Shown here piece after piece: positions 2,095-49,581 of a DNA stretch of 64,000 nucleotides. Where the stretch lies: positions 372,595 to 436,594 of the forward strand of contig JAWBAK010000001.1 of the NCBI GenBank assembly GCA_038997165.1. The letters run 5' to 3'. How positions within the stretch are numbered: the stretch's first letter is position 1; each line of letters starts with the position of its first letter. A program made the position numbers and the translations under genes. The notes under the pieces are model-generated. The model worked only from the letters and a program-made list of their open reading frames with translations, searched no databases and had not been told where the DNA came from. This DNA comes from Candidatus Aenigmatarchaeota archaeon (GTDB taxonomy: Archaea; Aenigmatarchaeota; Aenigmatarchaeia; CG10238-14; SpSt-28).

Positions 2095-2243
2095 GCCGGG
2101 GTCGCCTAGTGGACATGGCGGCGGACTTGAGTGATAGATTGGCGTGAAACTGATAAGAGATATAAAAAATGATGTGGGTGTCGAAATAAGAAAGAAATCC
2201 GCTGGGCTCTAAGCCCGCGTGGGTTCGAATCCCACCCCCGGCG
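2095..2243 (+). tRNA. tRNA-Ser(TGA) with 65-nt intron at 37/38 (2132-2196)
   Basis: GCGGA-CT TGA G[intron]A-TCCGC; long variable arm GGGCTCTAAGCCC; G73. Confidence 0.93.
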
Positions 2244-9228: not shown

Positions 9229-9328
9229 GCCGGGGTGGCGGAGCGGTTTCACGCGGCGGGCTGCAGGGTTTTGCGATTTATGAGCGATAGAAACCCGCAG
9301 ATCCCGGGTTCAAATCCCGGCCCCGGCT
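9229..9328 (+). tRNA. tRNA-Cys(GCA) with 26-nt intron (9267-9292)
   Basis: GCGGG-CT GCA G[intron]A-CCCGC; U73. Confidence 0.93.
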
Positions 9329-17869: not shown

Positions 17870-18955
17870 TTAAAAATACTTTAAATATTCAATTAATCTT
17901 CTTTTTTCTTTCTTTATATCTAAATAATTTTCGAAAATTTCATTTTTAATTATATCAAAACATTCTTGTAAAACTTCTAAAAATTCTCTACCTTCTCTTA
18001 TTGTGACAAATCTATTCTTATAATCACTAAAGATTAAATGAACAGTATAAATATCTCTATGTTTTTCTATATGTAATTTCAAAAATCCTCGATTAAATAT
18101 TTTTCTTATTTTTTTAATAAAATTCTTTATATAGAAGTCAACGTAATCAGAATAATATTTCTTTATATTCTCTTTTCCAATAATTATTACATTTATTTTT
18201 TCTTTTCTCTCTTTTATTAAAACTTTTAATAAATCTTTTTTAGTTATTATTCCTTGTAAATTTTCATTAACAACACAAGAAATTTTATAATAAAACATTT
18301 TTTTAATTATATTAGAAATTTTTTCATCACTAGAATATGTTATAACATTTTTAGTTGCAATTGATATTATAGGATTTTCAAAGATTTTAAATTTTTTTCC
18401 TATTAGTTCTCCTAATGTTGTCTTTTCTTTAAATTCCTTTAGAATAAAATCTGTTATATCTTTAGATGAAACTATTCCAGCAAGTTTTTTATTTTCTATT
18501 AATGGAATATGAGAAATATTATATTTTGCCATATATTTTATCGCTTTATAAATTGGTTCTTTCGATTGTAAAATAATTATATTTTTTGTTTCAATCTCTT
18601 CTGCTTTAACATTTCCAAATTTTTCTTTTATTATTTCTAAAAGCGAATCGATCTTAATAATTCCTTTAACTTTATTTTCTTTGTCTAATAATGCAGCTAA
18701 ATAACAATCATTTTCTATCATTCTTTTAGCAATTTCAATTTCATTAATTTCATAAACTTTACAATCTCTCTTTTTAACTTTTTTCAATTTTTCTTTTAAA
18801 TTTTTTTCAGTAATTAAATCTCTTAGTCTTACTATTCCTTTATATTTATTTTCTTCATCTGTAACTACTATTTCTCTTAGATCTAGATCTTTAATCAATT
18901 TTAAAGCTTCTCCTATTGTCTTATTTTCATCTATTGTAATTGCTTCTGAAATCAT
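17870..18955 (-). CDS. Tandem CBS-domain protein with probable C-terminal HPF/RaiA-like domain
   Basis: Four CBS repeats (e.g. ISHIPLIENKKLAGIVSSKDI) plus a roughly 95-aa beta-alpha-beta-beta-beta-alpha-patterned tail. Confidence 0.75.
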   Translation of the reverse strand: MISEAITIDENKTIGEALKLIKDLDLREIVVTDEENKYKGIVRLRDLITEKNLKEKLKKVKKRDCKVYEINEIEIAKRMIENDCYLAALLDKENKVKGIIKIDSLLEIIKEKFGNVKAEEIETKNIIILQSKEPIYKAIKYMAKYNISHIPLIENKKLAGIVSSKDITDFILKEFKEKTTLGELIGKKFKIFENPIISIATKNVITYSSDEKISNIIKKMFYYKISCVVNENLQGIITKKDLLKVLIKERKEKINVIIIGKENIKKYYSDYVDFYIKNFIKKIRKIFNRGFLKLHIEKHRDIYTVHLIFSDYKNRFVTIREGREFLEVLQECFDIIKNEIFENYLDIKKEKRRLIEYLKYF

Positions 18956-19489: not shown

Positions 19490-19616
19490 TGCGGGGGGTG
19501 GGATTTGAACCCACGACGGCTCTACGCCATCGGGTTTCTTATCATTTATTCAAAGCTTAAGATTTTATATCTTTATCTTAAGCCCGACGCCCTTGGCCAG
19601 GCTAGGCGACCCCCGC
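19490..19616 (-). tRNA. tRNA-Leu(TAA) with 41-nt intron (19536-19576)
   Basis: TCGGG-CT TAA G[intron]A-CCCGA; long variable arm; A73. Confidence 0.93.
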
Positions 19617-23684: not shown

Positions 23685-23824
23685 GCCGGGGTCGCCTAGC
23701 GGAAATGGCGCCGGCCTCGAGTTAAATGATAAGCTCTGGGGTAGCTGAAAGATAATGATGATTTTGTTATAAGAGAAAGCCGGTGGGCTCTAAGCCCGCG
23801 TGGGTTCAAATCCCACCCCCGGCG
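23685..23824 (+). tRNA. tRNA-Ser(CGA) with 56-nt intron (23722-23777)
   Basis: CCGGC-CT CGA G[intron]A-GCCGG; long variable arm; G73. Confidence 0.93.
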
Positions 23825-25064: not shown

Positions 25065-25163
25065 TGGGGCCGCTGGGATTTGAACCCAGGTTAACGGGTT
25101 TCCTCATTTTATCGGTGCTCCATTTCTGGAGCCCGCCGTCCTACCTGGCTAGACTACGGCCCC
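25065..25163 (-). tRNA. tRNA-Trp(CCA) with 26-nt intron (25100-25125)
   Basis: GCGGG-CT CCA G[intron]A-CCCGT. Confidence 0.93.
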
Positions 25164-49480: not shown

Positions 49481-49581
49481 GCCGGGGTAGTTTAGTGGTA
49501 GAACGCCGCGCTCATATTTAATGAGCTTTGAATCGATGATAAGAAACGCGGAGGTCGTGGGTTCAAATCCCACCCCCGGCA
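49481..49581 (+). tRNA. tRNA-Met(CAT), elongator type, with 29-nt intron (49517-49545)
   Basis: CCGCG-CT CAT A[intron]A-CGCGG; acceptor stem GCCGGGG favours elongator Met over initiator Met or Ile2. Confidence 0.9.

Follow-up and report, generated by a model that had tools for sequence, protein, structure and literature searches.

The intron of a tRNA-Ser(CGA) gene as a putative box C/D guide for 23S rRNA 2'-O-methylation in a Candidatus Aenigmatarchaeota archaeon

In animals, intron-hosted methylation guides are the rule, and in archaea the accepted intron-hosted example is the intron of tRNA-Trp, whose guide modifies the tRNA that carries it. The tRNA-Ser(CGA) gene described here, located in a 64,000-nucleotide stretch of genome G000 (the window, G000:C1:372595-436594), raises the question of whether a tRNA intron can also carry a guide for ribosomal RNA. 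We suggest that it probably does, and that the intron is a tRNA-hosted box C/D guide for 2'-O-methylation of the 23S rRNA at the equivalent of E. coli position 2441. An rRNA-targeting guide in this intron had been proposed in the initial annotation, and the proposal gained support from the complement in the organism's own 23S rRNA, conservation in five families of the order and a joint U/C change in target and guide.

Host gene, intron anatomy and splicing motif

Genome G000 comprises 652 kb in 4 contigs with 24.5% G+C, and the 17 sequencing runs found to contain this stretch were all hot-spring DNA metagenomes. The Rfam tRNA model scored the host gene at 42.5 bits (gathering score 29), and ARAGORN typed it as tRNA-Ser(cga) i(37,56) when introns were allowed, missing the gene without the intron mode. 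At the Rfam gathering thresholds, tRNA was the sole match at the locus, with no snoRNA or sRNA family. The coordinates of the gene, the parts of its intron and the related loci are collected in Table 1.

Table 1. Features of the tRNA-Ser(CGA) locus and related loci (plain numbers, window positions; G000 prefixes, contig positions)
Feature	Position	Strand	Remark
tRNA-Ser(CGA) gene with intron	23685-23824	+	Rfam tRNA, ARAGORN; long variable arm present
5' exon, tRNA positions 1-37, anticodon CGA at 23718-23720	23685-23721	+	
Candidate box C/D sRNA: 56-nt intron, canonical 37/38 site	23722-23777	+	ARAGORN and orthologous introns
C box variant AUGAUAA	23726-23732	+	
D' guide GCUCUGGGGUAG, 12 nt	23733-23744	+	pairs with LSU rRNA 2550-2560
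D' box CUGA	23745-23748	+	
Spacer AAGAUA, 6 nt	23749-23754	+	length and sequence vary among relatives
C' box AUGAUGA	23755-23761	+	
D-guide stretch UUUUGUUAU, 9 nt, AU-rich	23762-23770	+	not conserved in the genus
Degenerate D box AAGA	23771-23774	+	its G and A also lie within the splicing-motif GAG
Intron tail GAA	23775-23777	+	
3' exon	23778-23824	+	
tRNA-Ser(UGA) sister gene, 65-nt intron at 2132-2196	2095-2243	+	same layout; both guides complementary to SSU rRNA
Short-intron tRNA genes in the window	9229-9328; 19490-19616; 25065-25163; 49481-49581	+; -; -; +	
Short-intron tRNA genes elsewhere	G000:C1:136196, 245970, 475885, 549078		
LSU rRNA	G000:C1:322485-325518		reads AAAAGCUACCCCGGGGAUAAU at LSU 2545-2565
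Free-standing C/D sRNA, canonical boxes	G000:C1:263695-263742	+	beside tRNA-Pro(CGG)
Free-standing sRNA, boxes UGAUAU/AUGA/UGAUUA/UUGA	G000:C1:~270101-270158	+	
Two tandem sRNAs, AAGA as D' box, UGAUAA as C' box	G000:C2:~17960-18100	-	

The intron string reported earlier is identical to the window in all its parts, and the box C/D architecture claimed for it can be read at 23726-23774 with a canonical inner pair. The archaeal consensus is RUGAUGA for the C-type and CUGA for the D-type boxes (PMC5539422). The intron opens with UUAA directly before a C box that agrees with six of the seven consensus positions and keeps the first GA. The inner boxes are arranged as CUGA - 6 nt - AUGAUGA, the layout of a D'/C' kink-loop, and the D box retains GA alone from the consensus. 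The guide slots measure 12 nt from C to D' and 9 nt from C' to D.

The canonical-position introns of G000 all close on a complement of tRNA positions 32-35, four bases long, with AA between it and A38. Reading the tRNA-Ser(CGA) splicing motif by hand, we found C32-G, U33-A and C34-G paired, G35 facing A, and the bulges A36-G37-U and A-A-A38 around this 3-bp helix, compared with two 3-nt bulges and 4 bp in the canonical form. The precursor, judged by these predicted pairs, would have a relaxed bulge-helix-bulge motif. The AAGA given earlier as the last element of the string is a degenerate candidate D box and needs the correction that it overlaps the GAG required for pairing with C32-U33-C34. 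Because its G and A are within the splicing helix, the outer kink-turn would have to await excision or else compete with the splicing motif. No such constraint applies to the inner CUGA/AUGAUGA kink-loop at any stage. In a ligated circle, 8 nt would separate AAGA from UGAUAA, and the two might then make up a second kink-loop.

Complementarity to the 23S rRNA and conservation of the guide

The organism's own 23S rRNA, which the initial annotation had named as the place to look, does contain the complement of the D' guide. The sequence CUACCCCGGGG at LSU 2550-2560 (G000:C1:325034-325044, outside the window) forms 11 pairs with the guide, nine Watson-Crick and two G-U (pattern WWWWWWWUWUW), running from the D' box as seven Watson-Crick pairs followed by G-U, G-C, G-U and G-C. 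We aligned the LSU to the annotated 2904-nt E. coli 23S record for numbering; LSU 2550-2560 corresponds to E. coli 2437-2447, and the fifth paired nucleotide, LSU 2554, falls on E. coli 2441, the position near which a methylation site had been anticipated. This nucleotide is C in G000 and U in E. coli. The fifth-nucleotide rule predicts 2'-O-methylation there. The target stretch, which we take to be the 3' strand of helix 74, adjoins G2447-A2451 of the peptidyl-transferase loop on the 5' side.

The significance of this match was estimated with a weighted score for contiguous pairing through position 5 and 1000 composition-preserving shuffles of the guide, of which 37 reached the best observed score in G000. 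The site with that score (28) is LSU 2118, whereas LSU 2550 scores 27 with the same weights applied by hand. Within G000 alone, the D' guide match is only modestly above chance, and the genome holds 880 stretches with at least 11 pairs to rRNA when G-U is allowed; the case therefore rests on the relatives and not on the single match. The D guide of G000 gave no credible target in the rRNA scan, its best hits being AU-rich 8-mers that 546 of 1000 shuffles equal.

Two other candidate targets of the D' guide were rejected. The order-wide core GAGGUAU cannot pair at LSU 2118-2129 (E. coli 1990-2001; 12 pairs, 3 G-U), as checked by hand, and SSU 106 is a weaker match with one mismatch and three G-U pairs.

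The orthologous gene was detected in all six other genomes of the genus, at 81-99% identity. The guide segment UGGGGUA is invariant in the seven introns of the genus, as is the AGAGAA that precedes the 3' splice site. Six introns have UGAUAA as the C box and one has UGAUUA; the D' box is CUGA and the C' box UGAUGA in all members except G006 (AUGA and UGAAUA); and the D box is AAGA or GAGA. Length and sequence vary freely in the spacer (3-6 nt) and in the D-guide stretch (9-12 nt). This pattern of a fixed D' guide and inner boxes with a variable spacer and D guide is as expected for a guide RNA with one working guide, and by this comparison the D' guide alone looks functional in the genus.

We scanned 118 genomes of the order with a pattern of C box, guide core and D' box, using the reversed pattern as the control. 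Matches were found in 47 genomes, 63 in total by our count versus 22 for the backwards control, and about half of them share the guide NCCNGAGGUAU followed by CUGA. Thirty copies with the conserved guide were examined, and 29 of these are located in the anticodon-loop intron of a tRNA-Ser gene, spanning five families of the order (f1, f2, f3, f5, f7). ARAGORN assigned 24 of the 29 hosts to Ser(CGA) and one, in G028, to Ser(UGA), and mis-typed four, in which the anticodon loop CTCGAG could be recognised by eye. When 371 genomes of the phylum were scanned with a strict version of the unit, 16 matched, every one of them from this order, and the control gave 0 matches.

The thirtieth copy, L114 (G113:C1:33530-33800), is a bare anticodon-arm-like hairpin without a tRNA body, and a Ser-like tRNA 5' half begins ~60 nt downstream of the C/D unit. 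The locus may be a split or permuted gene.

The boxes and the D' guide are conserved across the order, with a variable spacer and D guide. Of the 29 parsed introns, 27 have CUGA as the D' box and all have a UGANNN C' box, while the D box is CAGA in 12, CUGA in 8, CGGA in 2 and AAGA or GAGA in the seven genus members. Outside the genus the C box is mostly UGAUGA or UGAAGA and the C'-D spacing is 10-12 nt; the spacer between the inner boxes measures 3-7 nt among the relatives. Since the boxes outside the genus are closer to the consensus, the G000 copy is, on this comparison, a somewhat degenerate version of an element that is old and conserved. For the D guides conserved in other families (e.g. 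G020, G026, G028, G060), no targets were found in the rRNAs of G000. In six relatives (G010, G018, G019, G023, G035, G039) the intron of tRNA-Ser(CGA) is short or absent and the guide is missing; the guide is therefore dispensable in parts of the order.

The target-stretch pattern was found in 57 of the 118 genomes. Its 58 rows read CUACCUCGGGG (42), CUACCCCGGGG (13), CUACCUCAGGG (2) and CUACUCCGGGG (1), and the CUACCCCGGGG rows include all four genus genomes that have an LSU. In 14 genomes both the guide and the organism's own LSU are known. Guide positions 2-7 are all Watson-Crick paired in every one of them, with 9-11 of the 12 positions pairing in total. Guide position 6 and its partner, E. 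coli 2442, are A/U in 10 genomes and G/C in the four genomes of this genus, a change that, by its distribution, is compensatory and a single clade-level event. Guide position 8 has an uncompensated mismatch in three of the 14 genomes (G020, G036, G054). Little more can be obtained from covariation because the target is a highly conserved rRNA stretch. In G028, the guide in the Ser(UGA) intron makes 10 contiguous Watson-Crick pairs with the order's usual LSU sequence, so that the guide follows the rRNA target rather than a particular host anticodon.

The peptidyl-transferase loop at LSU 2557-2568 (C1:325041-325052) reads GGGGAUAAUGG, versus GGGGAUAACAGG in the E. coli record, and E. coli C2452 is U in G000, a variant common to most relatives examined (loci L035-L062). 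In four genomes the 23S gene is interrupted directly after GGGGAUA by an AT-rich insert (L050 in G032, L054 in G013, L055 in G040 and L058 in G009), and these inserts are probably rRNA introns in the peptidyl-transferase loop. C/D-like units with a guide ending in GGAGGUAG or CGAGGUAG and then CUGA were observed within or beside 23S gene pieces (L099, G068:C9:836-857; G028:C8:25346-25367; G090:C10:47050-47071). The G068 unit lies ~190 nt upstream of the CUACCUCGGGG site and the G028 unit abuts a 23S gene piece; such units may be rRNA-insertion-borne guides for the same strand.

Alternative readings, sister introns and free-standing sRNAs

The element could be active in other families and a decaying relic in this genus, inactivated by its outer boxes, the 9-nt D spacer and the loss of the D guide. 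The genus is the furthest from the consensus boxes among the 29 parsed introns, and G006 has lost the inner CUGA and UGAUGA as well. We consider such decay unlikely, given that the D' guide core and the inner boxes stayed unchanged in six of the seven genus members while the flanking intron turned over, that the guide followed the LSU change, and that other G000 sRNAs with equally degenerate boxes still aim at the equivalent of E. coli G2251.

One of the latter is the sRNA at C1:~270101-270158, whose D' guide has the G2251 equivalent (P-loop) at its fifth position and whose set of boxes shows that degenerate boxes are normal in G000. Its D guide makes ten Watson-Crick pairs with LSU 2547-2556, which begins 3 nt upstream of the intron target and overlaps it, and methylation is predicted at E. 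coli 2438; the same rRNA strand would thus be addressed twice, by this guide and by the D' guide of the intron. The G2251 position is among the predicted methyl-guide targets in three other archaea, according to PMC4644070. Fully canonical boxes were detected in one free-standing sRNA only, C1:263695-263742, both guides of which have 10 Watson-Crick pairs and one G-U pair to SSU rRNA. The genome-wide lists of rRNA-complementary 9-mers and 11-mers were noisy and served only to spot the free-standing sRNAs.

The guide could instead act on its own pre-tRNA in the manner of the tRNA-Trp intron, with GAG placed on C32-U33-C34 to direct Cm32 and the rRNA match being secondary or shared. When the G000 precursor was folded without constraints, the minimum-free-energy structure paired the guide with exon positions 30-37 plus the first base of the intron, in a helix of 10 pairs (three G-U) interrupted by one bulged U; guide position 5 faces C32. 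The GAG opposite C32-U33-C34 is kept in all introns outside the genus and is also compatible with C32-U33-U34 of the G028 host, Ser(UGA). However, this bulged helix is not conserved outside the genus, where a hand check found 4-5 possible exon pairs, fewer than a guide duplex needs. The order-wide constancy of AUG at guide positions 2-4 and of CCC at positions 9-11 follows from the LSU and not from the exon, and the genus guide changed from A to G alongside the LSU change from U to C, with exon U33 unchanged. The scan of all 47 ARAGORN tRNA calls, the host included, gave no hit for the D' guide with more than 7 Watson-Crick pairs, and of the complementarity to the host tRNA around positions 34 and 39 that marks the Trp type, the Ser(CGA) intron of G000 offers only the bulged helix. 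Taken together, self-targeting appears quite improbable, and guidance of rRNA methylation is the reading that we prefer.

The sister gene, tRNA-Ser(UGA), provides a second intron of the same layout. The two Ser genes had been described as near-identical in exons with different intron guides, and both the sequences and the ARAGORN calls agree with this description. The D' guide core of the Ser(UGA) intron, UUGGCGUGA, is invariant in all seven genus members. It matches SSU 1364-1372 with nine Watson-Crick pairs, and its fifth position corresponds to the A at 1409 of the 1543-nt E. coli 16S copy, presumably A1408 in standard numbering. The D slot pairs with SSU 923-931 in G000, G001 and G005. In G003 it is complementary to SSU 360-368, overlapping SSU 357-367, the target of the D guide of the free-standing G000 sRNA C1:263695-263742, and in G006, with UUGA as the box, the slot contains the same guide as the free-standing sRNA at C2:~18050. 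Such movement of guides between an intron and a free-standing gene would be difficult to account for if the introns were not working C/D RNAs.

Eight short tRNA introns of G000 (Cys, Leu-UAA, Trp, Met, Leu-CAA, Gln, Glu, Lys) have another composition, with NNGA, a 4-6-nt loop and UGANN directly before the 3' splice site and no methylation guide. The flanks of this motif covary (UUGA/UGAUAA, CCGA/UGAGG, GCGA/UGAGCG, CUGA/UGAAG), and a stretch of 5-7 nt in each intron is complementary to the anticodon loop. These motifs look like L7Ae-type kink-loops, and most other tRNA introns would appear to carry a bare kink-loop of this type. The short tRNA-Ser(UGA) introns of a sister genus keep only the NNGA-loop-UGANN motif. 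The tRNA-Tyr gene at G000:C2:11128-11269 (+) has a 70-nt intron with two G+C-rich hairpins and UGAUAAG/AUGAUUA/CAGA near its 3' end.

A purely structural role of the Ser(CGA) intron, as an L7Ae-binding aid to pre-tRNA folding or splicing that guides no methylation and matches the rRNA by coincidence, would fit the eight guide-less introns with their covarying flanks, the kink-loops retained in the sister genus and the weak shuffle test in G000 alone, but we regard it as very improbable, as it leaves unexplained the two complete box pairs at 12-nt spacing, the 10-11-nt stretch that five families conserve and that matches the LSU of each genome, including one compensatory change, and the swapping of rRNA-complementary guides into the second slot.

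Proposed pathway, known systems and significance

The protein genes required for a guide of this kind are present in G000. We detected the adjacent genes of fibrillarin (269.5 bits) and Nop5 (155.3 bits), as well as L7Ae (106.3 bits), RtcB (579.4 bits) and a splicing endonuclease whose two catalytic-family domains share one 398-aa frame.

By analogy with known archaeal pathways, four steps are proposed. The pre-tRNA would be cut by the splicing endonuclease at the relaxed bulge-helix-bulge, with C32-U33-C34 paired to GAG. The exons would then be joined by RtcB, and the intron would probably be circularised. On the freed intron, L7Ae would bind two kink motifs, the inner CUGA/AUGAUGA and the degenerate outer UGAUAA/AAGA, and Nop5 and fibrillarin would be recruited to the L7Ae-bound RNA. 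The D' guide would finally pair with the LSU at E. coli 2437-2447, and fibrillarin would methylate the ribose at E. coli 2441 (C here). What the sequences show is the architecture, complementarity, conservation, compensatory change and protein genes described above; a stable excised intron, its assembly with L7Ae, Nop5 and fibrillarin, and methylation of the site are inferred.

A broader hypothesis is put forward tentatively and as a whole, namely that tRNA genes in this order are an expression and maturation platform for some ribosome-methylation guides, and that the Ser(CGA) guide arose from the anticodon-complementary element of a short intron. This origin is suggested because tRNA positions 31-35 and LSU 2440-2444 share five bases in most of the order. 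If the hypothesis is true, the order would have a prokaryotic counterpart of intronic snoRNA biogenesis, with tRNA splicing tied to ribosome maturation.

The euryarchaeal pre-tRNA-Trp intron sRNA (Haloferax volcanii; Pyrococcus sR50) is likewise a complete C/D guide in a canonical-position tRNA intron. This intron is released by the splicing endonuclease and forms a stable circle in H. volcanii (PMC4090602, PMC7994747, PMC3326292); PMC4090602 calls it a 'unique example' of an intron modifying its own tRNA, and PMC3326292 and PMC7994747 repeat the statement and add circular introns and circular C/D RNAs. It differs from the Ser(CGA) intron in that it guides modification of its own tRNA (C34, U39), whereas the Ser(CGA) guide sits in another host and matches the large rRNA, and conservation does not extend to any similar match with its host tRNA.

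In Nanoarchaeum equitans, the elongator tRNA-Met's intron is a 66-nt stable, abundant RNA, proposed to be a C/D box sRNA in the accessible part of PMC3491384. This case is similar in being a long tRNA intron with C/D elements in the reduced genome of a DPANN archaeon; it differs in its host tRNA and one deviating box, and the same part of the source names no target. The RNA itself was seen in N. equitans, while for the Ser(CGA) intron there is an order-wide relation of guide and target in the sequences.

Free-standing archaeal C/D sRNAs share with the intron the layout of two box pairs, of which the outer one is degenerate in G000, guides of ~12 nt, the fifth-nucleotide rule and targets in the ribosome core, and the rRNA target hotspots of archaeal C/D sRNAs lie around the peptidyl-transferase centre, according to PMC4644070 and PMC7994747. 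The intron, in contrast, is without its own promoter, so that its expression and ends would come from tRNA transcription and splicing, and its outer boxes are constrained by the splice-site helix. Eukaryotic intronic snoRNAs and the plant tRNA-snoRNA dicistrons, as described in PMC7994747, are comparable in that the guide rides on a host transcript and is freed by host processing. The likeness is an analogy only, since the eukaryotic intron is spliceosomal and trimmed by exonucleases, whereas the tRNA intron is cut by the tRNA endonuclease.

A literature search, with most subscription journals outside its scope, returned no description of a tRNA-Ser intron guide or of a tRNA-intron guide targeting rRNA, and within the same scope kink-turns of tRNA introns were described for the Trp and N. 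equitans Met cases only. The locus would supply a defined pair for experiments, a 56-nt RNA and one predicted methylated nucleotide, and it is a warning for annotation that C/D sRNAs with degenerate outer boxes can be hidden inside tRNA introns.

If the proposed function is true, the splicing of this tRNA would at once free an RNA that modifies the ribosome, and long tRNA introns would gain a selectable function. Archaea with reduced genomes would then make trans-acting rRNA guides for the catalytic core of the ribosome by way of tRNA splicing.
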